From a virus (taxonomy: Duplodnaviria; Caudoviricetes), in IMG/VR virus record IMGVR_UViG_3300021256_000066, positions 1 through 64,000 of that record: 64,000 nt of DNA; one strand, given 5' to 3'. Shown piece after piece: positions 8,457 through 57,332 of this stretch. The first letter of the stretch is position 1, and each line of letters starts with the position of its first letter. The notes beneath the pieces are model-generated. The model was not told the origin of the DNA. It ran no database searches and saw only the letters and a list, made by a program, of their open reading frames with translations. The translations under genes were made by a program, and so were the position numbers.

Positions 8457-9684
8457 ATGAAACTGACATTCAAGAATCTGCTCCGCGACCTCTATGTGGC
8501 ACTTGCCGACGCCCGCCGCCACAAGCGCAGGATGTCGTATGTCAGGAAGTTCCATCTGGCGCTGAAGACGAATATCATGCTGCTGTGCATGGCGCTATGG
8601 CTGCGCTCCTATGCGCCGCTGCCGTCGAAGTGCTTCATCGTGGACCGTCCGAAGAAGCGGGAGATCTACGCCGCGCAGTTTCCCGGACAGGATAGTGCAT
8701 CACCTCTACTACAACTACACGCACGAGCTCTACGAGGCGACGTTCATACGCGACTCGTACTCCTGCATCAAGAATCGCGGCACGCTCGACGGTGTGCTGC
8801 GCCTCTCGGAGCATATCCGCAAGGAGTCGCAGAACTGGACGCGGGAATGCTATGTGCTGAAACTCGACATACGAGGGTATTTTATGCACATCAACAGGCA
8901 GCGTCTGTTGGAGATATGTCTCGATACGCTGTCGAAGATGGCCACGCACAAGATGCCGAAGCACCTGCGGCACGGCAACGTGGTGACGTGGGAACAGGCG
9001 CTGGACATGGACTTCGTGAGGTGGCTCACGGAAGTCATCGTCATGCTCAACCCGCGCGACAACTGCATCATCTGCGGCAGCGAGGCGGACTGGATAGGAC
9101 TCGATCCGGCCAAGTCGATGCGGTGGCTGGAGGAAGGACTCGGACTGCCCATCGGCAACCTGACGAGCCAGCTGTTCTCGAACGTCTATCTCAACGTGCT
9201 CGACCAGTTCATGAAGCGGGTATTGAAATGCCGTCACTACGGCAGGTACGTGGACGACTTCTTCGTCGTGAGCTGCGACCGCGAGTGGCTGCTGTCGCTG
9301 GTGCCACGCATCAGACGGTTCCTGAAGGTGGAACTTGGTCTCGACCTGCACATGGGCAAGGTGCGCATCTGCCGTGCCAGTCAGGGCGTGGAGTTCCTAG
9401 GGGCCTACATCAAGCCATTCCGCATCTACACCTCGAACGCCACGAAGGAGCGGATACTGCAGAACCTGTCGGAGATGGACTTCACCGACCGCGAGGCGGT
9501 AGGCAGGACGGTCAACTCCTACCTGGGCATCATGTCGAAGACCGCCTCCTACAACCTGCGCCGGGAGTTGTTCTTCCGCAAGGAGTTCCTGCGCATAGGC
9601 TCGTTCGACGAGCGGATGACGAAGTTCACGCCGCACGGCCATCGTACCAGGCGGCTGCATAGACATCAACAACACCATTTATAA
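8457..9684 (+). CDS. DGR reverse transcriptase, split by a +1 frameshift at TTTCCC (8679..8684)
   Basis: N-part MKLTFKNLL..PKKREIYAAQF is in the frame of 8457. C-part PDRIVHH, LKLDIRGYF, GLPIGNLTSQLFSNVYL (DGR-type IGxxxSQ) and YVDD is in the frame of ORF 8611..9684. Confidence 0.92.
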
Positions 9685-43909: not shown

Positions 43910-44332
43910 TTACTCCTCTGCAAAGAGCCTGATAGCCCTGCCGCACTGCGGACAGCGCACCAGCCCCACCAGCGTAGTGCCCTGCGGCTGCTGCTCCTGC
44001 GCTGGCTGCTTATCGAAGGGCAACTCTTCCTGCTCTGACTGCTGACCGTCGGTCTGAGCCGATGCCGCCTGCTGCTGCCCAGCCGATGCCGATTCAGCGG
44101 CAGGCTGCTGTGCGGACTGCGACGGCTTCTGGGCGGTCTTGCCCTCGTTCTCATACCAGTCGCCGAAGAACTCGGCGGGCGAACAGCCGATGACCAGAGC
44201 GATCTCGATAAGTTTCTTCACGTTGGGCGAGCCGTTGATGGTGGCGCTGAGCGAACCTTTGGTGATGCCGAGCGCGTTGGCCACATCCTCCAGCCTGAAT
44301 CCGTGCTTTTTGATAACTGCTAATATCTGCAT
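43910..44332 (-). CDS. XRE-family HTH regulator with C-terminal CPxCG zinc ribbon
   Basis: LEDVANALGITKGSLS..N.SP...L.EIA..IG HTH; CPQCG. Confidence 0.8.
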   Translation of the reverse strand: MQILAVIKKHGFRLEDVANALGITKGSLSATINGSPNVKKLIEIALVIGCSPAEFFGDWYENEGKTAQKPSQSAQQPAAESASAGQQQAASAQTDGQQSEQEELPFDKQPAQEQQPQGTTLVGLVRCPQCGRAIRLFAEE

Positions 44333-44371
44333 AGTTTTAATATTTTTACTCGTTTTGTTGTAATTCTGCTG

Positions 44372-44562
44372 CAAAATTACAACTTTTCTCCAAATATCCA
44401 AACCTTTTTCTCTAAAAAGTTTGGCTGTTTTAAGATTTTTAATACTTTTGGTTTGGAAGTTTGAAAATATACTCTTAACTTTGCCGTGTTAAACATTAAC
44501 ACTTGAATTGTTAAATATCAAATCTGCTTTAACTTAACATATTAACACATGAAATGTTAAAT
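44372..44562. promoter_or_regulatory. Divergent host-type promoters and operator-like repeats
   Basis: Minus TTTG..TAATTTTG (about 44372..44402); plus TTTG..TAACTTTG (44452..44483); ATTAACAC(T/A)TGAA(T/A)TGTTAAAT at 44495 and 44541. Confidence 0.55.
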
Positions 44563-44759
44563 CGGAGGTCTAAACCCTGTTAAAACGTCGTTTTAGTTGC
44601 GTATCTTTAATTAATGTAGTCAGATTGGCAATTTTTGGTATACCAATGATAATTGCTAATTTGCTGATAATCATATAGTCCTGTTTCTGGCGGAAAACCC
44701 GAAGCCTTCCAAACAGACGCGAGACCGCCGCCACACTGCCGCGCCTCGCCGGCACCCCA

Positions 44760-45240
44760 TTGTCTGGAATGGGGTGTAATATGCGGGTGAGGGTGCGCGG
44801 TGTGGTGATCATCTCACTTTGCGGTGTGGTGCGGGTTTCTCTCTGTGTGGGTTTCGGTGTGGTGTGGTGGTGGTGTGATCCTCTCACCTCATCAGAGAGT
44901 GAGAGAGTGAGAGAGAGAAACCCCAAACAGATTGCACCCTCATTTCTTTGTGTGTGTGTTCAGGTGGTGGTGTGTGTTCCGGTGGTGGTGTGGGTTTCTC
45001 TCTGTGTGGGTTTCGGTGTGGTGAGGGTGCAATCTGATTGCAGCCATACCACCACCACCAAACCACCACCACACCACACCACAAAATGAGGTGTGAGAGA
45101 TCACCACACCACCACACCACCAAATGAGAGAGAAAACGAAACCAAATACCACCAAAAGCAACAAACAGAGAGAAACCAAAACCCAATACCACCAGAAACC
45201 CAAACAGAGAGAAACCGCAAAAAATCGGCACACCTTATTA
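44760..45240. other. Strand-skewed non-coding region (GT-rich then CA-rich); origin or genome-end candidate
   Basis: 32-bp direct repeat at 44833 and 44992; inverted ACAGAGAGAAACC at 45165 and 45204; central palindrome at 45028..45042. Confidence 0.5.
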
Positions 45241-45329
45241 TATATATAGGGGCAAAAACGCAAAAGTTTGAATATTTTGTAACTTTTTCGGAAAAAGTTT
45301 GGTTATTTTGAAAAATTTTCGCTCAAAAG

Positions 45330-45361
45330 TTTGGAATATTCAAAACTTATTCTTACCTTTG
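45330..45361 (+). promoter_or_regulatory. Host-type early promoter TTTG...TACCTTTG
   Basis: Consensus -33/-7 boxes heading the small-gene array. Confidence 0.7.
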
Positions 45362-45395
45362 CAGCGTAAAATTAAAACTTTAAGCAAAATATTAA

Positions 45396-45434
45396 AACCG
45401 AAACCCCAATGGCATATAATAGGGGATTAAGACA
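45396..45434 (+). promoter_or_regulatory. Covarying leader hairpin AACCGAAA-CCNC-loop-GNGG-N9-ATG (also 46427, 47997, 48353, 48914, 52452; degenerate 49692)
   Basis: Compensatory CCCC/GGGG, CCAC/GTGG and CCGC/GCGG stems. Confidence 0.75.
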
Positions 45435-45851
45435 ATGACACATTTTAATTTTAATGGTACAGAGGTAAAAGTTAGTGCATCTTTCAAAGGTGAGGTTTCA
45501 AATGTTTGGGGTGATGGTATGCAGCATTTTAAGTTCATCATTACCATTACAGCCAATGACAAAAAAACATCTTTCACTTATTATGATTCATTTGCTAATT
45601 GGCAAAAGAACAAACAGAACTTAGATTCTGACGATCTCAAATCTGCATTGGACTGTTTTTTCTCTGATGCATCATGTTATGAGAGTGCAACAGATTTGGC
45701 GGATTTTCTTTGTGAGTTTGGGTACAATGAGGACACAGAATCTTTGCGCAAAGGTATGAAAGCGTTTGACGGATGCAAACGTCATTATCAAAGTGCGGTT
45801 AGAGTGTTCGGATCTGATTGGTACGACATCGCAAACGCTATTAATGAATAG
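45435..45851 (+). CDS. Hypothetical early protein
   Basis: 138 aa; first gene after the early promoter. Confidence 0.75.
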   Translation: MTHFNFNGTEVKVSASFKGEVSNVWGDGMQHFKFIITITANDKKTSFTYYDSFANWQKNKQNLDSDDLKSALDCFFSDASCYESATDLADFLCEFGYNEDTESLRKGMKAFDGCKRHYQSAVRVFGSDWYDIANAINE

Positions 45852-45920
45852 TTACTAATTAATCCCTATTACAGAGAATCAGATAAAAAGAGTACAGAAC
45901 CATATAAAAAACATTGAGTT

Positions 45921-46148
45921 ATGACTACAAAAGATAAATATTCGTATGAGGTGAGAAAACAGGTCAAAAATGGTGTGGATTTCTCAAAGAATGTATTTGA
46001 AACCCCTATTATATTACGCATTGATTTAGCAGAGATCGCACGAAAATACCATTATAAGAAAACTAATCCTAACCACTCTTTGGGTGTGTGTTTCTATCTG
46101 CTATTGCAAAGAGTATATAACCAGTTAAGAAATGAGGGTGCAATCTGA
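45921..46148 (+). CDS. Hypothetical early protein
   Basis: 75 aa. Confidence 0.65.
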   Translation: MTTKDKYSYEVRKQVKNGVDFSKNVFETPIILRIDLAEIARKYHYKKTNPNHSLGVCFYLLLQRVYNQLRNEGAI

Positions 46149-46204
46149 TTGCACCCCATACAGAGAGAGAAAAAAGAGTTATAAACAATTTAATCCGGTA
46201 AGTT

Positions 46205-46345
46205 ATGAATAAGTTATTTTTAGTGATCCTTTGTGTTGGTGGTGTGGGTATGTCGCAAATCTACTCATATAGCCCTACACAGTTACTTTGTGATTTAGTG
46301 AGAAGTGGCGAGACCATAAGCAATGTAACAATAAAGAGCGCATAA
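46205..46345 (+). CDS. 46-aa peptide missing from the ORF track (MNKLFLVILCVGG...)
   Basis: Preceded by the AAACAATTTAAT..GTAAGTT-ATG leader shared with other early genes. Confidence 0.5.
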   Translation: MNKLFLVILCVGGVGMSQIYSYSPTQLLCDLVRSGETISNVTIKSA

Positions 46346-46465
46346 AATCGGATTAGGGGCAAATATTGAACTTTGTGCGGATCGTAACCGTGTACCCCTA
46401 CAATTATAGAGTAATAGACAATTTAAAACCGAAACCCCAATGGCATATAATAGGGGATTAAGAAC

Positions 46466-46744
46466 ATGAAATATAATACATTTTATTCCCACAAACTGAA
46501 ATGTGAGGTTAGGCAAATAAATGTAAGAACCGCAAAGAAACTCTTTGAGAATGGGAAAGGTATTTTCTTTCAATCCTCAAATATGACATTTGACAATGTA
46601 TGGCACACACCATTCTTTTTTAATGCAGAGTGCGCAAATGGTCAAAGTTTCGAAACTCTTTGTAACTCATACAGATATTATAATTGCGACAATTACAGAG
46701 GGAAATATATCAATTACTTTATGAGGGTTTCGGATTTCTCATAA
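46466..46744 (+). CDS. Hypothetical early protein
   Basis: 92 aa, hairpin leader. Confidence 0.7.
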   Translation: MKYNTFYSHKLKCEVRQINVRTAKKLFENGKGIFFQSSNMTFDNVWHTPFFFNAECANGQSFETLCNSYRYYNCDNYRGKYINYFMRVSDFS

Positions 46745-46799
46745 TACCCCATACCCCTACATTATAGGCAATTTATAGAATCCCTAAAATATTGCAGAT

Positions 46800-47063
46800 A
46801 TGAAAAAAATGGCATACATCAAAGTTAATGGTACGACATTTGGCTACATTTGGCAATGTACCAAAAACAAAGAGTATTTTGTTAATTGGTGTGGGTGTAA
46901 TGGTGGTGAGTTTGCGCAATGGTGCAAACAGATTGCAGAGATACCAAACGCAATAAACTCAATCTTTGGTGTGAGGGTTTCTTTAAAACCTTTGAAATGG
47001 TGTGCAAATTCTTTCGACCAGATTGCAGCAGATCACCCCACAATTATAGAGAATATTATCTAA
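46800..47063 (+). CDS. Hypothetical early protein
   Basis: 87 aa. Confidence 0.7.
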   Translation: MKKMAYIKVNGTTFGYIWQCTKNKEYFVNWCGCNGGEFAQWCKQIAEIPNAINSIFGVRVSLKPLKWCANSFDQIAADHPTIIENII

Positions 47064-47109
47064 TCCCTACATTATAGACATATTATAGAATCACTTAAAT
47101 ATTATAGAT

Positions 47110-47559
47110 ATGGCAAAGATTGATATTTCAAAAGAGAGTTTAGAGAGTTTTAGCCACAATAAAAATGTGTGTGGTATCTCTCAAAGTGAGGTGATCACAA
47201 AGAGAATGATTGCACCCATTGATGAGAAAAACGTTACATCCGATTGGATAGAGCAAATATTTGACGGATATAATTGTACCTATACAGAGGTAAAACGCAC
47301 ACACAAATATTGCGGTTTCGTTGGTGGTGAATTGGTGATGTGTTCTTACACCTTTGGCACAAATACCCTGCAATGGTGGATTGTTATACCCTCTTATGAT
47401 AGTGAAACCGCATACCATTACAATGAGAGATTGCAGAGAGTAAACTCTATCTTATTAGAGAGATTGCAAAAATTTGAGAATGATGAGAGTGATCTGTTTT
47501 CCTACATTGATAACAAAGGTTATTTGATTTATCAGGATTTCTATTTCAAAGGTGAGTAA
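47110..47559 (+). CDS. Hypothetical early protein
   Basis: 149 aa. Confidence 0.7.
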   Translation: MAKIDISKESLESFSHNKNVCGISQSEVITKRMIAPIDEKNVTSDWIEQIFDGYNCTYTEVKRTHKYCGFVGGELVMCSYTFGTNTLQWWIVIPSYDSETAYHYNERLQRVNSILLERLQKFENDESDLFSYIDNKGYLIYQDFYFKGE

Positions 47560-47604
47560 TCCCACATTATAGGCATATTATAGAATCACTTAAAAATTAC
47601 AGAT

Positions 47605-47955
47605 ATGGCAAAGTTTACGATAGATTTAGACTATTTCGACATTAAGAGTAAATCTTTGGTTGGTGATATGTGTTTCTTCTTTGAAACCTCATTGGAAAAC
47701 TCTATTTGGTGTGAATCTGCAAAAGAGATGCAACAGAGTTTTGAGGATGGTTTCAATGGTGGTGATATTGGCAATGAGATCGAAAACCCAGAAATCCACA
47801 ATGTATGTGAGGTGGTAGATGAGTTTGGTATGATTGGGTATCCTAAAATCTCTAATATAGTTCTGCTGCAAAATCAGAGAGATTTAGAGAATCATATCCG
47901 GAAAATGGTTTCACAGAAATACCCACAATCGGAAATCAAAGTTTGGTATAAGTGA
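47605..47955 (+). CDS. Hypothetical acidic early protein
   Basis: 116 aa. Confidence 0.7.
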   Translation: MAKFTIDLDYFDIKSKSLVGDMCFFFETSLENSIWCESAKEMQQSFEDGFNGGDIGNEIENPEIHNVCEVVDEFGMIGYPKISNIVLLQNQRDLENHIRKMVSQKYPQSEIKVWYK

Positions 47956-48033
47956 TACCCATTATAGAGAGTTTATAGAATCACAGATAAATTTAGAACC
48001 GAAACCCCAATGTGATAACAGGGGATTACGACA

Positions 48034-48303
48034 ATGAGTAAAACAGAGATTTTAAAGAATGCTTACAACCGCATAAAGAATGGCGAAACATTGGTATGTA
48101 ATGGGTGTGTAATGTGGAAATATTATGATCCGTTTGCAGGGCATAATGTAATAGAATGGCGCAATTTCGGACAAAGTGCAAACCGCATGAATTTCGACAA
48201 TTTCAAATGGATTGTAGAGGTGATCGCAAAGAGTATAGATTACATCTTTGAAACCCCACAAGAGTATGCACAAAGAAAGAACATACCATTGTATTTGGTT
48301 TAA
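48034..48303 (+). CDS. Hypothetical early protein
   Basis: 89 aa, hairpin leader. Confidence 0.7.
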   Translation: MSKTEILKNAYNRIKNGETLVCNGCVMWKYYDPFAGHNVIEWRNFGQSANRMNFDNFKWIVEVIAKSIDYIFETPQEYAQRKNIPLYLV

Positions 48304-48389
48304 TATCTCTTTATAGGTATATAGAGAGTTTATAGAATCAGAGAATTATTAGAACCGAAACCACAATGTGATAATAGTGGATTACAAAG

Positions 48390-48851
48390 ATGGCAAAGAA
48401 TTTAGAGTTTATCAATGTATTAGAGGATTCTTACCCATTGTATGAGTATTGCAAAGAGAATGGTTTTACCGATTGTGAGGATTACGATGAGTGGTTTGAC
48501 AATGGTGGTGAGTTGAGTTTCTTTGAGGGTGATCCCGACATTATCAAAGTGAATGGTGAGATAGGTTATTTCTGCAAATGTGGTGATGTGGTTTTCTACT
48601 ACTTTGATGATTGTTTCACACATGATGCAGAACAGATACTCAAAGGTTTCTTTGCAGCATTCAATGTGGGTACTACCATTGGCGGTGAGAGTTGGATGAG
48701 TGGTGAGTTACCAAAGGGTGTGAGTGATGCAGCAGAGATACAGAATTGGGATGTGTGGGAAAAGATTAGATGCGGTATTGCATACAGAGGTGGTGCCGGA
48801 TATACCTACACTATACAGAGTTGGGGTAACTATTTGAGGTATGCAGCATAA
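48390..48851 (+). CDS. Hypothetical acidic early protein
   Basis: 153 aa, hairpin leader. Confidence 0.7.
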   Translation: MAKNLEFINVLEDSYPLYEYCKENGFTDCEDYDEWFDNGGELSFFEGDPDIIKVNGEIGYFCKCGDVVFYYFDDCFTHDAEQILKGFFAAFNVGTTIGGESWMSGELPKGVSDAAEIQNWDVWEKIRCGIAYRGGAGYTYTIQSWGNYLRYAA

Positions 48852-48950
48852 CCCCATATTATAGACATTATAGGAAATCAGAGATATTACAGATAAACAA
48901 TTTAATTCATAAGAACCGAAACCACAATGTGATAATAGTGGATTACAGAG

Positions 48951-49637
48951 ATGAAGAACTATAAAGTAAAGTTATTCCATTTTGATGAGTTATCAGAGGA
49001 TGCAAAAGCAAAGGTGTGCGATAAGGAGAGAGAGAGTGATTATAACTTTGGCTATCTCTCACAAGAAACAGATGCAGAGGAAAGAATCGCCACATTGGAT
49101 AAGTTCTGTGAGGTATTTGGCATTAAGTATAATATAGATTACGATCATAATCACAGATTCATCGAATGGCATTTCCTGGATGTGGATATGAATGGGTATG
49201 ATTGGTGTGATGAGGATATAGAGGGTAAGTATCTGTTGAGATTTCTCAATCGCTACTACTTTGATATTCTCTCAAAGAAATACTACTCATGCAATCAGCA
49301 TTACGATGAGAATGGCAAATTCCATTACGCACACAGATATTCACGTTTTCAGTATGAGAGAGGTAATTGTCCTTTTACCGGAATGTGTTACGATTGCGAC
49401 ATATTGGATAAGATTTTTGAGTGGTATGACAAACCTAATTGGAAAATCTCTTTGCATGATCTCTTTGAGGATGTTTTCTCTCACTATATGAGTTTGTGGG
49501 AAAGTGAGGATGATTACCGCATGAGTGATGAACACATTTCCGACATGATTTCTGCTAATTGGGGTGATAAACTCTACTTTGAGGATGGTAGAGAGTTTAA
49601 CGGCAATGAGGATGATTTAGAACCGATTGCAGCATAA
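48951..49637 (+). CDS. Acidic early protein of the F.ELS..AK...SDE.I...I.AN..F.EDG type
   Basis: Terminal motifs recalled from mobile-element proteins often labelled antitoxin-like; function unverified. Confidence 0.7.
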   Translation: MKNYKVKLFHFDELSEDAKAKVCDKERESDYNFGYLSQETDAEERIATLDKFCEVFGIKYNIDYDHNHRFIEWHFLDVDMNGYDWCDEDIEGKYLLRFLNRYYFDILSKKYYSCNQHYDENGKFHYAHRYSRFQYERGNCPFTGMCYDCDILDKIFEWYDKPNWKISLHDLFEDVFSHYMSLWESEDDYRMSDEHISDMISANWGDKLYFEDGREFNGNEDDLEPIAA

Positions 49638-49732
49638 TTATAGGGTAAGTGAGAAATTAAGCGATTACAAACGATTATAGATAGGAATTAGAACCGATCC
49701 CCGAATGTGTATATAAGAGTGGGTTTATAAAG

Positions 49733-50005
49733 ATGAAGAAAAACGATATTTACAGAGAGTTTCAAAGGATTGCAGCAGAGGTAGTGGGTGACAACCGCAA
49801 AGCTCAAAAGTATTATGTGATGCAGATGTGCGAACAGTTGGGTAAGGTGAACCACAAGAACCCATTTGTGATGTGGTGCAGCAGGAAAAGATGTATGGTG
49901 TATCAGAGTGGTATGGTAGAGAAACCTACACCAAAAAACTCACAGAATGGTGCATACTACCTTTTCCGCAATAACTCACAGAGTGCAGAGAGAGTATCTT
50001 TTTAA
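49733..50005 (+). CDS. Hypothetical early protein
   Basis: 90 aa. Confidence 0.65.
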   Translation: MKKNDIYREFQRIAAEVVGDNRKAQKYYVMQMCEQLGKVNHKNPFVMWCSRKRCMVYQSGMVEKPTPKNSQNGAYYLFRNNSQSAERVSF

Positions 50006-50063
50006 GTGAAGAGTGAATAGTGAAGAATTACATATTATAGAACCGGTAAAATATCACAGAATT

Positions 50064-50609
50064 ATGAACAATGATGTATATATGGTGGAATACAAAGGTA
50101 AGAAATTCCCCACAAGAGAGATTGAGATTGAACACTACATTAAGGGTATGGGTGTAGTAACTATTGCCGATTGGGAATTGTGGAAAACAATAGAGGATGA
50201 TTGCCGAAATGGGGATAGCAGAGCAACCGCAATCGACAATGGCATATTCTACTACTGCAATTCGGGAATGATAGCAAGCAATCCGTCTGATACAGAACTT
50301 ATCTACTCTGTATTGAGGGGTATGCACAATGAGGATGATTTTACGGATGAGTGGTGGTACAATCTAATGCGCAATGCAACCTTTGAGATTGCACAGATGC
50401 ACGAAAGAGGTGAGATCAACTGCAATGTAGAGGGTTATGAGTGTGGTGGTTATTATTCGGTGTATGGTTATAGTGATGGTGTGAATCACTCTCTTTATGA
50501 GGGTAAGAGTGCAAAGATGGCTGCAATGGCTGCAATGAGTGCAATCACCACCATCCGGCTGATGAACTATCCGTATTGGAGTATCACAGAGGGTGTAAGT
50601 ACATTATAG
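50064..50609 (+). CDS. Hypothetical early protein
   Basis: ATT-ATG at 50064. Confidence 0.7.
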   Translation: MNNDVYMVEYKGKKFPTREIEIEHYIKGMGVVTIADWELWKTIEDDCRNGDSRATAIDNGIFYYCNSGMIASNPSDTELIYSVLRGMHNEDDFTDEWWYNLMRNATFEIAQMHERGEINCNVEGYECGGYYSVYGYSDGVNHSLYEGKSAKMAAMAAMSAITTIRLMNYPYWSITEGVSTL

Positions 50610-50660
50610 AGTTTATAGGATATTAGAGATATTACAAACAATTTAATTCAGAATAAGATT

Positions 50661-51245
50661 ATGGCACAGAAATATTCGTTTAAGACAATGTGGATTGATG
50701 ATAAGGAAATGTTTTCAGTTTCATTGTTATGCAATGGTGAGGTGGTAGAAACTCACACATTCAAAGGACACCAGGATATGATGATGTGGATTTCGGACAC
50801 AATGGCAGGGTTGCAACTCTGTGGCGATGATTGGGAATTTGTATGCAAAGAGAGAACCTATATTGAGAAACCCAAAGACAATAACCTTGATGCGCTATTC
50901 AATAGTGTGGTGGAAAAGAGACAATCAGATTACGATAAGCGCAGAGCAGAGGGTAAGGCAAAGGAAAGAGAGTGGATGCAGAGAACACAAGAGTTTTTCG
51001 CAAAGATCGAGTTCTTAAATCAGTATGGTTTCGGTTTCCACATTTCAGAGGAAAAGGAAACTGGTTGCACCTCTTATCCCGATGAACATAGAATATATAT
51101 CCGTCCTTCAAAAACTCATGGGCGTATCAATGTAATGCCGAATGGTGACATACATTGCTCTTGCTATGTAGGCACTTACGACAAGACATTCAAGAGTGTA
51201 GAGGAATTTGTGAAAGCAATGGCAGAGTGTATCAGAATGAAGTAA
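50661..51245 (+). CDS. Hypothetical early protein
   Basis: 194 aa. Confidence 0.7.
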   Translation: MAQKYSFKTMWIDDKEMFSVSLLCNGEVVETHTFKGHQDMMMWISDTMAGLQLCGDDWEFVCKERTYIEKPKDNNLDALFNSVVEKRQSDYDKRRAEGKAKEREWMQRTQEFFAKIEFLNQYGFGFHISEEKETGCTSYPDEHRIYIRPSKTHGRINVMPNGDIHCSCYVGTYDKTFKSVEEFVKAMAECIRMK

Positions 51246-51275
51246 CATTATATAACCGATTAAAATTCACAGACT

Positions 51276-51476
51276 ATGGCACAGAACAATATGCAATCAG
51301 ACGAGTTGGTAATCACTATCCGCATTACATTTGAGCATGACGGAAGAATGGGTGATCGGGATGAACGTAATGAGTATGTGGCTGCAAAGGTGATTGGCGA
51401 TGCGCTATCGCACACCCACACCATTGAGAACGGCATACAGATACACGACATCGAGAATTGTGGTGAGAATTGGTAA
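51276..51476 (+). CDS. Hypothetical early protein
   Basis: 66 aa. Confidence 0.6.
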   Translation: MAQNNMQSDELVITIRITFEHDGRMGDRDERNEYVAAKVIGDALSHTHTIENGIQIHDIENCGENW

Positions 51477-51537
51477 CATTATAGACATTATAGGAAATCA
51501 GAGTAATTAACGAATTAAACAATAGGAGAATTAAGTT

Positions 51538-52410
51538 ATGGCAAAAGAGATTAGTGTTTGTAAGGTAGATATGGGTAGAAACATTGAAAAACCCACAAAG
51601 GTGAATAGGTTTAAGAATTTCTGTACCTACTGCAAAGTACCCACAATAGGTTGGGGCAAGCCATTCTATGCAATCATGCAGGGTAAGTTGAGGGCAGTAA
51701 AGTTCATTCGTATTGAATACTACACCTACAATACCTTTAACAACACAGATAGTTTGGAGTGTAAGTTTGCAGTAATCTATCTTGATGTGGCAGGAATTGG
51801 TGAGGTGAAAGTTTCAGCACACTATTGGTACGACATTCCATTCTCTATCTTTGAGAGTGTAGAGGATTTCAGAAACAATGTGGAGTACGATGTTAGTCAC
51901 GATGCAGGTGAGGTACACCTTTTAGATATGCTGCATGATGTTGCAAATGGTAGGCAGATGTTTAAGCATATTAGTGCAGGAGAGAATGATACCCTATTGC
52001 AGTTTGTGTGGGATGCAGCAAAGTGTGAGGTGAGAACCGCTTACACAGAGATACCCTCATGTATCAGTTACACAGAGAGAGAGGGTTTCTATACCAAAGA
52101 GAAATGGGTATTAGGCAATGGCAGATTTGCCACAAGAGAGGATTGTGAGAATGCCAACAATGTAGAGGTGGTGGAGTTTGAGGACGATCCTACTCACATT
52201 GAAAAGGATTTGCGCAAGCAGATTCGTACTGAAGTAATGCGTACCTTTGCTGATTGGCTAACTGCATCCGACATTGAGAATATGGCAGAGAGTATCATTG
52301 ATGATTGTGTTGAGGATGTTAAGGTATGCAGCGACTACCCACACTACAATGATGATGATGTGCGTATTGCCATTCAGAGGGTAATTCTTAACAGAGTGGT
52401 TGGTGAGTAA
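51538..52410 (+). CDS. Hypothetical early protein
   Basis: 290 aa. Confidence 0.75.
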   Translation: MAKEISVCKVDMGRNIEKPTKVNRFKNFCTYCKVPTIGWGKPFYAIMQGKLRAVKFIRIEYYTYNTFNNTDSLECKFAVIYLDVAGIGEVKVSAHYWYDIPFSIFESVEDFRNNVEYDVSHDAGEVHLLDMLHDVANGRQMFKHISAGENDTLLQFVWDAAKCEVRTAYTEIPSCISYTEREGFYTKEKWVLGNGRFATREDCENANNVEVVEFEDDPTHIEKDLRKQIRTEVMRTFADWLTASDIENMAESIIDDCVEDVKVCSDYPHYNDDDVRIAIQRVILNRVVGE

Positions 52411-52488
52411 TCTTATTATAGAGTTTATAGGATATTAGAGATACAATTCAGAACCGAAACCGCAATGCGATAATGGCGGAGTAAGACA

Positions 52489-53190
52489 ATGAAAGAGAAT
52501 ATTGCAGTATTGTTGGCAGAGAGGAACGATTTGGTGGAGAAGTTCAACAAGCGTAAGGACTATGCAGTCCAGGGTACGCAGGACAGAATGGATGAGATTT
52601 GCCGGCAGATAGACAGTCTGATGACAGAGGACAACTCCATTGAGGTGACTTTTTTAGAGTATGGTGTGGTGAGGTACACACAATCACAGATTGATGAGTT
52701 GAAAGCAAAGGGAGTGGATTTATTTCGCTATACGAAGAAAGCAGACGGGATGTACGATCATACGGAGAAGATACTCAAGCAGGGCAGGGTGATACTCTCT
52801 GATAATGACGAGAAGAATCGGTTTTTTCTCTTCTGCATTGGCTACCACAAGTATTTGGATGAGTACACTCCATTCTACCATATCCATGATCACTATCCCT
52901 GCTATCCCCACAAGATACAAAACTCTCTTGACATCTATGAGGGTACATACAAGAATCAGTTTGTGGATGATTTTGTCTATACGACTGCAAACGGAGAGTT
53001 GGCAATCAAGTATGGCAATAAGAGAGTGGATAGTTGGAATACCGCATACAACTGCGTATTGACTACCTCTATTCATGCCAACCTATTCAGCATTAGTCCT
53101 GCATTGATAAGCAAGAACCGCAAAGAGGTGCAGCGTTATGAGGGCAACCGATGGTATCACACTAACCGCATGATTGGGAGTTATCAGTAA
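52489..53190 (+). CDS. Hypothetical early protein
   Basis: 233 aa, hairpin leader. Confidence 0.75.
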   Translation: MKENIAVLLAERNDLVEKFNKRKDYAVQGTQDRMDEICRQIDSLMTEDNSIEVTFLEYGVVRYTQSQIDELKAKGVDLFRYTKKADGMYDHTEKILKQGRVILSDNDEKNRFFLFCIGYHKYLDEYTPFYHIHDHYPCYPHKIQNSLDIYEGTYKNQFVDDFVYTTANGELAIKYGNKRVDSWNTAYNCVLTTSIHANLFSISPALISKNRKEVQRYEGNRWYHTNRMIGSYQ

Positions 53191-53227
53191 ACATATTATA
53201 GACATTATAGGAAATCAGAGTAATAAC

Positions 53228-53300
53228 AACTTTTCGATTAAGCGAGTAAAATCAAATGTATTTGAATTGTCGAGCGTGAGAAAAGTCAAACGAAGTTTAA
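53228..53300 (+). repeat. GCGAG...CGAGCGTGAG element inserted in a conserved leader
   Basis: Interrupts the AACAA|TTTAATTCAG leader seen intact at 55805. Confidence 0.65.
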
Positions 53301-53319
53301 TTTAATTCAGAATAAGATT

Positions 53320-54051
53320 ATGGTACAGATTGAAAAGATAGACGGAATGTATAAGTGGGATTTGAACCGCATGGTGGATGATTGCTCAAAGAGGATTGGC
53401 GATAATGGCTACTTTGGCAGTTGGCACAAGATTCAGATAGACGGAAAGCAGACGATGGTGTATTGCGATGATAGGGATGCACTCTGCTTTACTGCAATCA
53501 ATGAGTGGTTTGACGAGGTGGTAGTGTTGGAATGGAGTGGTGACTATCGTTGGAATAGCGACAAACCCGCAATCGTAAGGAATGGCGATAAGTTCAATAT
53601 AGTGGAATGTCCCAAAGGTGGAATGTATAATAGCAGCAAGAAAATGCGCTTGCTCTGTGATGTGTGGTTTGAGTTAGTGGGTGATCCCAAATGGAAGTTT
53701 GACGATGAGCTGCATACCTACTGCATCATGGCAAAGATAGATGGCAATGTGGTGAAGATTACCAAAGAGGGTAGCATTGTAGAGGGAAACCCTCAAGAAC
53801 TGATGGCAGAGGTTAGCCATTATAGCATGGATGAGATATTAGAGAAGTGGATTCGTGCAGGCAAACGCTGCATCTATCGTGAGGGATGGGCATACAGAGG
53901 TGCAAAGTCAAAGGTTATCAGCAATGAGGATGCAGAGAGAATGTTACCTCAATACCATTTCGGCAAAGGATTCTATGAGTTGCGTTGGACGATGGATGAT
54001 GGCAAGGTAGCATTGGAGTTCAATGAACTATCAGTATTGGATATGGAGTAA
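53320..54051 (+). CDS. Hypothetical early protein
   Basis: 243 aa. Confidence 0.75.
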   Translation: MVQIEKIDGMYKWDLNRMVDDCSKRIGDNGYFGSWHKIQIDGKQTMVYCDDRDALCFTAINEWFDEVVVLEWSGDYRWNSDKPAIVRNGDKFNIVECPKGGMYNSSKKMRLLCDVWFELVGDPKWKFDDELHTYCIMAKIDGNVVKITKEGSIVEGNPQELMAEVSHYSMDEILEKWIRAGKRCIYREGWAYRGAKSKVISNEDAERMLPQYHFGKGFYELRWTMDDGKVALEFNELSVLDME

Positions 54052-54112
54052 CCCTTTATAGCGAGTGTAAGAAATCAGAGTAGAAACAATTAAAGTATAG
54101 GAGAAACAAGTT

Positions 54113-54880
54113 ATGATTATCAATATTGAGTTTACAACCGCAAGAGGTTACAAGTATGAGACGATGCGCACAGAGTTTGACCGCAACTATCGGGATGAGG
54201 AACAGGCATTGATCTTCGTGGAGAGCGAGGAGGATGATTTCAATGGCTACTTTGAGGTGAACATCCGCAAGGACAAGCAGGGCAAGGCTATCAGCGAGGG
54301 TTATGTGTGCGAGTATGCAAGCACAGAGGATAGCGACCCACAGACTATCTATGAGGATGCGAAGATTGAGGTCAAGCTGCATGACTTTGACGATGTGTTG
54401 GAGTTGGCTAATGCGGAACTGTGGCAGGATGATTTGCAGATTGTGTTGGAGTACGATGGTGAGTGTTATTGGGCTATCGGCACAGAGATTAAGGCTACAA
54501 AGGAAATTAAGTGGTATGTATCGGCAGACTTTGAGAACGAGGTGCGAGGGCATATCTATGAGTGTTGGGCACACGCAAGGGCTATGGCAAAGGAATTGGC
54601 AAAGACTGACGATAAACCGAAGATGTGGTGTGTGACTTATGTGGGTTTGTCGGATTCGGAGTACAAGGCTAATGGCTATTCAGAGGTTGCTCTGTATGCC
54701 ACAAAGGATGCAGCGAAAGCGAAACTGAAAGCATGGCGAGACAACGAGATTGCGGAACTGAAAGAGCAGGAACGTGACTATGAGATATTGGAAGATGAGG
54801 ACGATGAGTGCCGTATCAGTTGGTGCGGACATGGTGAGCAAATCCGCATTGAGGTACACGAAGTGGAGTTGAATAAGTAA
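54113..54880 (+). CDS. Highly acidic hypothetical protein
   Basis: 255 aa, D/E-rich. Confidence 0.75.
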   Translation: MIINIEFTTARGYKYETMRTEFDRNYRDEEQALIFVESEEDDFNGYFEVNIRKDKQGKAISEGYVCEYASTEDSDPQTIYEDAKIEVKLHDFDDVLELANAELWQDDLQIVLEYDGECYWAIGTEIKATKEIKWYVSADFENEVRGHIYECWAHARAMAKELAKTDDKPKMWCVTYVGLSDSEYKANGYSEVALYATKDAAKAKLKAWRDNEIAELKEQERDYEILEDEDDECRISWCGHGEQIRIEVHEVELNK

Positions 54881-54946
54881 ACCCCTACATATTATATACA
54901 TTATAGAATATTACAGAAATCAGCAACAATTTAATTCAGAAAGATT

Positions 54947-55495
54947 ATGAAGAAAGAGATTATTTTGGCAGTAGCCAATCAGATACAGAACATGATGTAT
55001 AACGACATTACTTGTGAGTATGGAGTGGAGAGTTTTGAGAGTTGGTGCAACGATGGTGAGGTGTTTGAGAACGAGGGTATGGATGCAGCCGATGTGAAAG
55101 AGTGTATGCAGTTGGTTAAGGTGGTTGCTCCATTGGTGGATAACTTGGTGATGAACAACCTCAATATCGACAATCCCGAAGTGGCGGTTGCGAAGAAAGA
55201 GTATGTGGTGCGGTCTATCTCATGGGATGATAAGTTGAATGCTATTATAGAGGCTGCGAGAAATGAGGGATTTGCCGAAGAGGTGGAGGATATAGACTTG
55301 CTCTCATATATCAAGGTGAACGACAAAGGAGAGAAAGAAACCTTTGAGGAACGTTTCGACTATATCGACACTACCACCATTCCGATATCTGTTCACTTTA
55401 TCTGTGGCACCGGCTATGAGAACTATTCCGTACCTATCGGATGGCTGACAGACGAGAGTATTGATAAACTCTATGAGTGCGTGATAAACAAGTAA
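54947..55495 (+). CDS. Acidic hypothetical protein
   Basis: 182 aa. Confidence 0.7.
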   Translation: MKKEIILAVANQIQNMMYNDITCEYGVESFESWCNDGEVFENEGMDAADVKECMQLVKVVAPLVDNLVMNNLNIDNPEVAVAKKEYVVRSISWDDKLNAIIEAARNEGFAEEVEDIDLLSYIKVNDKGEKETFEERFDYIDTTTIPISVHFICGTGYENYSVPIGWLTDESIDKLYECVINK

Positions 55496-55563
55496 TCACC
55501 TTTTATATATTATAGTGAGATTATAGGATTTAGTGAGAAATTAAAAGTATAGGAGATAAGATT

Positions 55564-55788
55564 ATGGGATGGATTAAAACACCAACGAAATCGAGCGAGG
55601 AAATCTTCAGCGAGATTGTCAAAGACAGACCGACTTGGAACGGACGGATTGGCGATAGCACAACACCATACGAATATTGGAGTGACTGGCTGCGTGATAA
55701 CTATGACCTCACAATAAAGCAAGCTGACGAGGTTTGCAGAGGACTTAAAGAGTATTACCATATAGAGCATTTCTATTATGGAGAGTGA
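55564..55788 (+). CDS. Hypothetical protein
   Basis: 74 aa. Confidence 0.65.
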   Translation: MGWIKTPTKSSEEIFSEIVKDRPTWNGRIGDSTTPYEYWSDWLRDNYDLTIKQADEVCRGLKEYYHIEHFYYGE

Positions 55789-55826
55789 GAAAAATCAGAG
55801 AAATAACAATTTAATTCAGTAAGATT

Positions 55827-56396
55827 ATGGATAAGACGAATAATACGATGTATTCAAAGGGTATGGTTGATAACATGATTGTGAGCGGTACTGCGGAGAA
55901 CCGCAAAGTGTTGAACGGCACAAACTATCAGTTTGACGAGATGGGCGAGTGCGAGATAGAGATGCGTTTCTTTGACGGATTGGCGGTGGCTACTGACGAT
56001 AGCGGAGTGGTGGTGCGCTATCCTAAGTTGAGCGAGGTGCAGGGGTCTGTAAAGATGCAGCAGGCTATCTACCGACATACGGGATTGAACTGCGCGAGTC
56101 AGTTTGATGTGGCTCTGACCTTTGGCAAGGCTGACCGCTATAAGATGGTGGCTGACTACGACATTTGGCGGTTGCAGGGCGACAACGAGGACTTGGATAT
56201 TACCGCTATACATTCTGCTGACGGAAAGTTTCTGTTTGATGTGTTGGAGGATGACTATGAGGAAATGATGAATGCTGACATCGTGGAGGATGGCTATCTG
56301 TGTGGGCAGCCTACTGACGAGCAGATCAAAGAGTGGCAGGCTAAGTATGGCATTCTGTGGACGGAGAACTTTACTAAGGAGTTGGTGGGTGCTTAA
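55827..56396 (+). CDS. Hypothetical protein
   Basis: 189 aa. Confidence 0.7.
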   Translation: MDKTNNTMYSKGMVDNMIVSGTAENRKVLNGTNYQFDEMGECEIEMRFFDGLAVATDDSGVVVRYPKLSEVQGSVKMQQAIYRHTGLNCASQFDVALTFGKADRYKMVADYDIWRLQGDNEDLDITAIHSADGKFLFDVLEDDYEEMMNADIVEDGYLCGQPTDEQIKEWQAKYGILWTENFTKELVGA

Positions 56397-56426
56397 CATT
56401 ATAAACTATATAGGAGATTAAGGACT

Positions 56427-56648
56427 ATGGTACATTTGGAGAGGAAGAATCCCGAAGTGAGGGAACATCTGACTGACGAGGGAGTGCAGATCGTGATGGA
56501 CGCTCTGTTGCACGAAATGGAGCGATACAACAAGGCAATGGACTTGGTGACGTACGGGAACGCACGTCATGCTATCGACTATGCGAAGAAAAAGGTTTAT
56601 CGGGTTTATCAAGTGATGAACAACCTTATGCCCGAAGATAAGGGGTGA
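56427..56648 (+). CDS. Hypothetical protein
   Basis: 73 aa. Confidence 0.65.
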   Translation: MVHLERKNPEVREHLTDEGVQIVMDALLHEMERYNKAMDLVTYGNARHAIDYAKKKVYRVYQVMNNLMPEDKG

Positions 56649-56705
56649 CACCACATTATAGACAATCGGAAATATCACAGAAGTTTAATTTAATTCAGTA
56701 AGATT

Positions 56706-57332
56706 ATGAGTACAAGAGCAACGATTAAGATCAAGCAGAGTTTCTATAACACAGACGAGGATTACGACAAGGGCATACTGACACCTTACGAAATCGAGTT
56801 GTATCACCATTCAGACGGATATCCCAAAGGCATTGGGGCGGACATCGTGGAGTTCCTACGCAACAGAAACGATGGCTACGACACCGACAAACCGATATGG
56901 GAAGCTGAACGCATAGCAACGGACATGGTGAGGGGTGAGGTGCTGACGAGCAAGTCGTTGAGCGAGCCAAAGGATGTGCATCGGGATATGGGCTACGATG
57001 TGGCTATCTGTCAGCATGGCGACTGCGTGTATGGCTATCTGATAGACTGCGATGAGCGCAAGGTGACGTGCTACGATATAGAGCCAGGGCAAGAGGATTG
57101 GACGGATGACTGCATTGTGGAGATACCCGACACTTGGGCGCAGTTTGGCGGTCTGCATCTCCCCGAAGAGACGGACGGACTGAAGAAGTTTAGCGAGGCT
57201 ACCGCAGTACAGAAAGCGGAGTGGCTGCTTGAGGTGGCAGAGGAGTGCAAGGTGAAACATCCCGATCTGGAGTGGGACGACATCATCAGCCGTGCCAAAG
57301 AGCGACTGGCAGAGGCAAAGGGAGAGAAATAG
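56706..57332 (+). CDS. Phage protein with MSTR...YxHxDGYPxGxG motif
   Basis: MSTRATI and LYHHSDGYPKGIG; function unknown. Confidence 0.75.
   Translation: MSTRATIKIKQSFYNTDEDYDKGILTPYEIELYHHSDGYPKGIGADIVEFLRNRNDGYDTDKPIWEAERIATDMVRGEVLTSKSLSEPKDVHRDMGYDVAICQHGDCVYGYLIDCDERKVTCYDIEPGQEDWTDDCIVEIPDTWAQFGGLHLPEETDGLKKFSEATAVQKAEWLLEVAEECKVKHPDLEWDDIISRAKERLAEAKGEK

Follow-up and report, generated by a model that had tools for sequence, protein, structure and literature searches.

In T4-type phages, promoter(early) stem-loop elements (PeSLs) place a strong host-type promoter beside a stable terminating stem-loop (PMC2839356, PMC4122927), and Bacteroidetes are known to lack functional Shine–Dalgarno (SD) pairing (PMC3155529, PMC7797042). 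How start codons are chosen and tuned in Bacteroidota without SD pairing is still open, and very few cis-acting leaders are known in the phylum. Here, we describe a short leader hairpin that precedes seven early genes of a phage (Caudoviricetes; IMG/VR record IMGVR_UViG_3300021256_000066, hereafter G000) as well as chromosomal genes of one Bacteroidales family. The phage record is 129,506 bp long and rated complete by CheckV; the window, i.e., the whole stretch of DNA analyzed, is its first 64 kb (64,000 nucleotides). The leader resembles a PeSL in that it is a short repeated regulatory cassette with a G/C stem, placed before small ORFans in a hyperplastic early region of mosaic gene content. 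However, the leader cassette does not include a promoter (TTTG-N20-TAnnTTTG stands before copy 1 alone), the 4-bp stem with its conserved loop of 12–14 nt and no U-tract is not a stable terminator, and the leader stands 9 nt from the AUG and is found at host chromosomal genes too.

The phage carries seven leader copies, six canonical and one degenerate, all on the + strand and within a low-GC early block; a covariance model built from phage copies found no additional copy anywhere in the phage genome. Each copy consists of the box AACCGAAACC, a 4-bp stem, a loop of 12–14 nt (AATG..ATAA), 9 nt, and ATG. A preliminary description of this DNA had placed a hairpin exactly 9 nt before the ATG of six genes, and this proved exact. 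The 16-mer AACCGAAACCNCAATG occurs exactly six times in the genome, each time on the + strand (45396, 46427, 47997, 48353, 48914, and 52452), the spacer between stem and ATG is exactly 9 nt in every copy of this genome, and open reading frames (ORFs) begin at all six ATGs (45435, 46466, 48034, 48390, 48951, and 52489). When up to three mismatches were allowed, the 16-mer matched 10 times in the window against 1.6 expected, a number reached in none of 100 shuffles. The canonical stems are CCCC/GGGG in three copies, CCAC/GTGG in two, and CCGC/GCGG in one, with loops of 14 or 12 nt.

Copy 1 (45396–45437, 66.4 bits) has its box from 45396, the stem halves CCCC at 45404–45407 and GGGG at 45422–45425, and the 14-nt loop AATGGCATATAATA, and its ATG opens a 138-aa ORFan; its hairpin is also the minimum free energy (MFE) fold (−6.9 kcal/mol). 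Copy 2 (46427–46468, 64.7 bits; CCCC 46435–46438, GGGG 46453–46456) likewise has a 14-nt loop and heads a 92-aa ORF. The loop is 12 nt long in copy 3 (47997–48036, 61.4 bits; CCCC 48005–48008, GGGG 48021–48024; loop AATGTGATAACA; 89 aa), copy 4 (48353–48392, 63.5 bits; CCAC 48361–48364, GTGG 48377–48380; loop AATGTGATAATA; 153 aa), copy 5 (48914–48953, 58.7 bits; CCAC 48922–48925, GTGG 48938–48941; 228 aa, phrog_10310), and copy 7 (52452–52491, 56.3 bits; CCGC 52460–52463, GCGG 52476–52479; loop AATGCGATAATG; 233 aa). Copy 6 (49692–49735, box AACCGATCCC, ATG at 49733 of a 90-aa ORF) had been noted as degenerate. It retains three in-register pairs only (CCC 49699–49701, GGG 49721–49723) and scores 47.7 bits (E = 4e-9) with the covariance model, and is thus a real but weakened member of the family; its orthologues have CCCAC/GTGGG in the related phage G002 and CCCG/TGGG, with a G·U pair, in G001.

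The leader is not confined to phages. When 185,579 species genomes were scanned with a stricter pattern, 18 matches resulted, 17 of which were rejected as chance singles with no stem or ATG. The sole genuine one (L219), on a 288-kb contig of a Bacteroidales metagenome-assembled genome (G004), is complete in architecture: its stem is of a fourth type (CCTC/GAGG), and a 9-nt spacer leads to the ATG. It lies between a flavodiiron protein gene and pheS, in a housekeeping neighborhood that also includes a cyclophilin gene, stands after a promoter of host type (TTTG followed by the −7 box TAaaTTTG), and heads a lipoprotein gene; tblastn of the ORFs in the surrounding 20 kb revealed no phage similarity. 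A model made from the phage copies only gave weaker matches in 15 of 151 genomes of the family of G004. The bacterial consensus reads AAAACCGAYG, a variable stem of 3–5 bp, RATGG(G/T)ATATAAC, N, the stem partner, about 9 nt, and ATG. The model R2, built from bacterial and phage copies together, was positive in 17 of 41 relatives of G004, with one to six copies each, in 5 of 151 genomes of an order sample, and in G004 alone among the 151 genomes of a phylum sample; bacterial copy counts are lower bounds, as the best 40–150 candidates per genome were scored. In four of five motif-bearing genomes, the loop pattern occurs four to five times each; it was never seen in the reversed control and is missing from G004, whose copy has a 12-nt loop. 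The motif family is thus native to one family-level lineage of Bacteroidales. The leader had been proposed to define a sub-regulon of the phage, and a subset of genes is indeed marked; nevertheless, the element is not phage-specific, as it heads about four to six exported-protein genes per genome in that family. Prophages did not serve to assign a host: family genomes gave only remote capsid-like matches (26–30% identity).

The evidence for a paired stem comes from two sources of unequal weight. In the phage copies, RNAalifold predicted the identical 4-bp stem unprompted, with 98% of cells pairing and none of 500 shuffles equal. However, the compensatory changes within phages amount to only about two to three independent events, and the leaders move as units, which weakens the phage-only evidence; the solid pairing evidence is that of the bacterial copies. 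Register shifts lowered the pairing in the model-fitted alignment A4 (68%), and an anchor-based test was used instead, in which 49 distinct bacterial copies were anchored on the conserved loop and the best closing stem was sought. Among these 49 copies were 28 distinct stems, such as TGCC/GGCA, GCCA/TGGC, TCTC/GAGA, ACTC/GAGT, GCTT/AAGC, AGTC/GACT, GACCT/AGGTC, and TACTC/GAGTA. The mean best stem was 3.43 pairs, compared with 2.89 ± 0.12 when the 3′ halves were dealt among the copies (none of 3000 shuffles equal), and with tighter offsets it was 3.18 compared with 2.26 ± 0.13. A census of pairs, with the register picked on Watson–Crick pairs only, counted 157 Watson–Crick, 14 G·U, 2 A·C, and 23 other combinations. 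Such an asymmetry between G·U and A·C is expected of pairing on sense-strand RNA, and supports it. The structure is therefore selected, as the preliminary description had suggested from the phage copies, and lies on the sense strand. Its other suggestion, a hairpin read on single-stranded DNA, is disfavored by the same asymmetry, by the host promoters upstream, and by the single copies at ordinary chromosomal genes.

No copy matched Rfam 15 (cmscan, E ≤ 1, window positions 44000–57000 plus 20 bacterial loci), and keyword and motif-string searches of the searchable literature returned no description of the motif, which had been presumed undescribed. We regard the leader as a new family of cis-regulatory leader hairpins, the notable point of which is its sharing between host and phage. 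The other cmscan matches were Flavo-1, elsewhere in three overlapping loci, and the sub-threshold skipping-rope and rox2. Flavo-1 RNA (RF01705; 44–45 bits, above gathering) lies at L224:1985-2065 and L237:2857-2940, within 0.5–1.4 kb of motif-led lipoprotein genes in two genomes. As a partner small RNA it was rejected, with no meaningful complementarity to the loop.

The leader has a consistent position within transcripts. A strict TAnnTTTG −7 box stands at most 90 nt upstream in 31 of the 50 bacterial copies, against about 7% expected by chance (a rough composition estimate, not computed by a tool). The distances from this box to the leader box cluster at 19–27 and 32–38 nt, so transcription should start 10–30 nt before the leader box, with the motif in the 5′ untranslated region (UTR). 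The bacterial spacer between stem and ATG has its mode at 9 nt (24 of 49 copies; range 7–15). Phage copy 1 is arranged like the bacterial copies: a regex scan of the genome found the Bacteroidota promoter TTTG-N20-TAccTTTG at 45330–45361 (+), 34 nt 5′ of the leader, which should put this copy within a transcript of the host RNA polymerase (RNAP). In Logan contigs of two metatranscriptome runs, parts of 45.4–50.1 kb were covered at ≥99% identity, and contigs of both runs span 48332–48525, taking in copy 4 from 21 nt upstream. Beyond this region, only short, partly fitting contig pieces of about 30 nt were seen, which we do not use as evidence of absence; since contig ends often fall near repeats, we do not read them as transcript ends either. 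The leaders are transcribed and mark a subset of genes in a phylum without SD use, in keeping with the setting in which the preliminary description had placed them.

The same data bear on whether the conserved blocks might instead be a DNA promoter for an alternative sigma factor of the extracytoplasmic function (ECF) type, with AAACCGA as the −35 element, GATATAAC / GATAAT as the −10 element, and very short leaders. In bacteria, the copies would then define a regulon of the envelope-stress type, whose host sigma factor the phage would also employ. Two conserved blocks about 14–16 nt apart, AAC-containing upstream and TATAAT-like downstream, would suit such a promoter, as would an own copy for each phage gene and a small regulon of about five envelope or exported genes per genome, which is typical of ECF regulons. 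Double-stranded DNA, however, gives no reason for the helix covariation of the spacer with the region after the −10 element and leaves the tolerance of G·U without A·C unexplained, and a promoter does not need a fixed ATG distance. Moreover, sigma-A-type −7 boxes already stand 19–38 nt upstream in 31 of the 50 bacterial copies and before phage copy 1, and the RNA contig that begins 21 nt upstream of copy 4 passes through it. Searches of the phages found neither sigma-factor domains (r2, r4) nor a T7-type RNAP. We consider an ECF promoter improbable. Additionally, the RNAP domain PF00940 was not found in the phage, in a search whose control gave no response, and no giant virion RNAP was recognized (the largest ORF has 1718 aa). 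With no recognizable RNAP or sigma domain of its own, the phage probably relies on host machinery for early expression. Since the leader also heads bacterial genes, the phage probably uses a host expression signal.

The genes behind the leader differ between bacteria and phage. In bacteria, about 47 of the 50 proteins encoded downstream have an N-terminal MKK and signal peptide, and a lipobox is present in at least 29, yet they belong to unrelated families (DUF2807 adhesin-like and fn3/GH85_C-like; most match no family). Conversely, the seven phage targets are cytoplasmic-looking ORFans without any Pfam family. This contrast between exported and cytoplasmic targets suggests that the leader acts independently of the downstream product. 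Some bacterial targets are clustered: locus L310 (G164:C40:16062-22617) contains, within about 6.5 kb, at least four genes that follow the motif and encode small exported proteins, two of them with near-identical promoter and leader, as a bacterial counterpart of the phage array. We also considered an upstream ORF. The most frequent geometry combines a 14-nt loop, a 4-bp stem, and a 9-nt spacer; there, a nine-codon frame starts at the loop AUG, and its UGA overlaps the main AUG (AUGA; e.g., 45408–45437), as is the case in 10 of 27 phage copies. Among the 50 bacterial copies, this frame overlaps the main AUG in 14, stops early in 13, is in frame in 10, runs on in 8, and has no AUG in 5; given such mixed outcomes, an upstream ORF was rejected as a conserved feature.

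We think it somewhat probable that the leader is a 5′-UTR element that acts at translation initiation through a host factor and was borrowed by phages. A role in initiation is inferred, among other reasons, from the fixed AUG distance and from the fact that Bacteroidota do not use SD pairing. As a cis-acting element on the sense strand, it would comprise a single-stranded box (phage AACCGAAACC, bacterial AAAACCGAYG), a weak stem of 3–5 bp presenting the conserved 12–14 nt loop RAUGNGAUA(UA)AY, about nine unstructured and mostly A/U-rich nucleotides, and the AUG. When the AUG sits in the P site, a hairpin that ends near −10 would occupy the place of the SD helix in other bacteria. Given a conserved loop sequence on a stem too weak to act by itself, loop and box would be read by a partner (a protein, or the 30S subunit as such) that would set translation initiation. 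Because the motif is native to the host lineage and lies behind ordinary host promoters, this trans-acting partner is most likely host-encoded. The effect would most likely be positive: a phage that depends on its host at the start of infection sets the leader before seven cistrons of an early array with one host promoter at its head, the transcript of which is probably polycistronic. A positive role is favored over that of an operator for a host regulator. A pseudoknot or preQ1-I-like fold was rejected on inspection of alignments A1, A3, and A4: neither loop–spacer nor box–loop pairing is conserved, the 3′ spacer itself varies, and no stretch of 4 nt or more in the loop is complementary to the 5′ box. 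As a different and rather doubtful possibility, the leader might be a self-contained, SD-independent module of Bacteroidales for ribosome recruitment. Its loop and box would bind the 30S platform or a ribosome-associated protein, at the position taken by the SD helix elsewhere in bacteria; it would serve a few highly expressed secretome genes and would have been captured by phages to initiate translation of their early genes.

All RNA-structure evidence for action at translation initiation applies equally to a leader that decides the fate of the transcript, whether as an endoribonuclease processing or stabilizer site, by which a polycistronic early RNA would be cut into translatable units, or as a loading site for antitermination of the NusG-paralogue or N/nut type. 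The layout of a box followed by a hairpin is like that of boxA–boxB, and the phage copies lie in a long co-oriented array, where control of processing or read-through would be useful. Nevertheless, neither processing nor antitermination requires the tight AUG spacing (mode 9 nt), most bacterial copies stand before a single gene and immediately after a promoter of their own, and the stem is short and weak for a stabilizer and is not at the extreme 5′ end. We therefore hold a site of this kind to be unlikely.

Several points weigh against a host-read element of translation initiation. The hairpins are not more stable than shuffled sequence (MFE −4 to −9.4 kcal/mol, z −0.3 to −1.9), and in one orthologous group (loop GATGGTATATAAC) the stem contains an internal mismatch or takes a shifted register. 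The complementarity of loop or box to 16S rRNA does not exceed that of shuffled controls in two motif-bearing genomes (in RNAduplex against G162 16S rRNA, the fraction of shuffles as good or better was 0.04–0.84, and no pairing with the 3′ tail was seen), so direct pairing with rRNA is unsupported. Assembled RNA contigs cannot show 5′ ends and may include DNA. Phage copies 2–7 have no canonical host promoter directly upstream (in the genome regex scan, the strict TAnnTTTG box stands before copy 1 alone), and their transcription is thus assumed to come from read-through or from a TATAG boundary motif described below. Furthermore, as the bacterial targets are almost all exported and the phage targets are not, the shared function may be condition-dependent regulation rather than simple enhancement.

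A covariance-model search of related phages, an extension already envisaged in the preliminary description, found seven copies each in the close IMG/VR relatives G001 and G002, confined to the early blocks and the coding strand, and three short metagenome contigs supply more copies. The gene content of the early block is mosaic among G000, G001, and G002, and the G001 orthologue of gene 48390, 97% identical, bears another leader type, indicating that leaders are exchanged as whole units; otherwise, the presence or absence of a leader is conserved across orthologous phage genes. The mosaic block and the swapped leader would agree with a DNA recombination or cassette-boundary element (PeSL- or attC-like), in which a single-stranded DNA hairpin or plain homology shuffles early ORFans and any effect on expression is secondary; PeSL cassettes of T4-type phages act in this manner (PMC2839356, PMC4122927). 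Such an element, however, is hard to reconcile with single copies at ordinary bacterial chromosomal genes among housekeeping neighbors, with strictly sense-strand copies at a fixed ATG distance, with the excess of G·U over A·C pairs, and with leader presence that is stable across orthologues. Additionally, nearly every gene boundary is marked by the TATAG motif and not by the hairpin. We judge recombination as the primary role to be very improbable.

Other phages differ in their use of the motif. It is absent from the distant relative G003, although the 228-aa protein is common to both phages at 61% identity, and the intergenic repeats differ; megablast found no phage relatives in GenBank. At least 11 IMG/VR contigs from different samples have a single copy with the stem GTGC/GCAC and the box AAACCGAAGA (the loci of this group are L277, L280, L282, L286, L287, L289, L290, L293, L297, L298, L302, and L303), and another phage (L276) has a single copy with the stem GCCCT/AGGGC. 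Pattern-scan matches in 46 of 48 IMG/VR loci and in most metagenome loci were rejected as chance singles without stem or ATG. In G001, four tandem repeats of about 100 bp (L074:3140-3540), containing AACCGAAAA(A/G)GGGTGCAG, lie directly 5′ of the first leader copy. The G002 record (L075:1-600) begins right at the early block, which suggests that a genome end is nearby.

The early block itself stands apart from the rest of the phage genome. GC content is about 56% over most of the genome and 35–43% in the 44–56 kb stretch, with a strong skew of G over C (up to +0.32 in window positions 44000–56000); the compositional split from the rest of G000 is sharp, and the block is nearer in GC to the motif-bearing bacteria (about 40%) than the remainder of the phage is. 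It consists of about twenty small genes on the + strand, with no Pfam family and almost no PHROG family. Strict matches to the Bacteroidota promoter (TTTG-N19-21-TAnnTTTG) cluster at 44420 (+), 44452 (+), 45330 (+), and 44402 (−), a hub (44402–45361) that borders a CA/GT-rich repeat region at about 44.7–45.3 kb, and a further match lies at 45779 (−), within the first early gene. A second repeat of the block is a double TATAG box with the consensus CATTATAGA-N3-5-TTATAG(G/A)AAT(C)AGAG, which starts on the + strand at 46763, 47073, 47568, 47963, 48320, 48860, 50605, 51480, 52417, and 53197. These 10 copies lie within 46763–53197 of the window, and the only other one in the genome is on the − strand. 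Nearly every stop codon of the early block is trailed by a double TATAG box, which is the upstream element wherever it co-occurs with the hairpin leader. It loosely resembles the promoter cores of T7/SP6-type RNAPs, and such an RNAP was not found in the phage. Elsewhere in the window, a 401-aa ORF (8457–9662) gave a weak N-terminal match to phrog_1423 (reverse transcriptase; E = 3.5e-6, about 65 residues).

For work on translation in Bacteroidota, the leader offers a compact, well-covarying motif (about 45 nt) with a fixed distance to the AUG and a small, defined set of targets. Its reuse by phages on unrelated cytoplasmic proteins amounts to a natural transplant experiment and suggests that its function does not depend on the downstream gene. 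It could also serve as a portable expression part for gut Bacteroidales, and shared leaders suggest a way to link phages to host lineages.

Finally, we compare the leader with other described RNA and DNA hairpins. Translational operators (those of T4 RegA, gene 32, and gene 43, and the coat-protein hairpins of MS2 and PP7) are likewise RNA signals at the initiation region, and either recur in several early mRNAs or are recognized by a protein via a conserved loop closed by a covarying stem. However, they overlap the SD sequence or the AUG and are read by phage proteins, whereas the leader ends 9 nt before the AUG and occurs in uninfected host genomes; a RegA homologue (PF01818) was not found in G000–G002, in a search to which the control genomes cannot respond. 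CsrA/RsmA hairpins share the short stem and a conserved loop, often with GGA, beside the initiation region of several mRNAs. In the leader, this GGA is replaced in many copies (GUGAUA, GCGAUA, GGCAUA, and GGUAUA), being absent from five of the seven G000 copies and from the GGUAUA bacterial copies, and CsrA (PF02599) is absent from five motif-bearing genomes, although positive controls responded. The lambda nut site (boxA + boxB) also has a conserved single-stranded box followed by a short hairpin with a sequence-critical loop, but boxB, with its 5-nt GNRA-like loop, affects transcription elongation from one or two sites in an operon and is unrelated to any AUG, whereas the leader has a loop of 12–14 nt, a fixed AUG distance, and seven sites. 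Small hairpins also precede early phage genes in the N4-type promoters, but these have stems of 5–7 bp and 3-nt loops, against 4 bp and 12–14 nt in the leader, and require a giant virion RNAP; the leader, moreover, occurs in bacteria too. In genome organization, PeSL is the closest phage analogue; for the proposed mode of action, the nearest are translational operators and loop-specific protein-binding hairpins.

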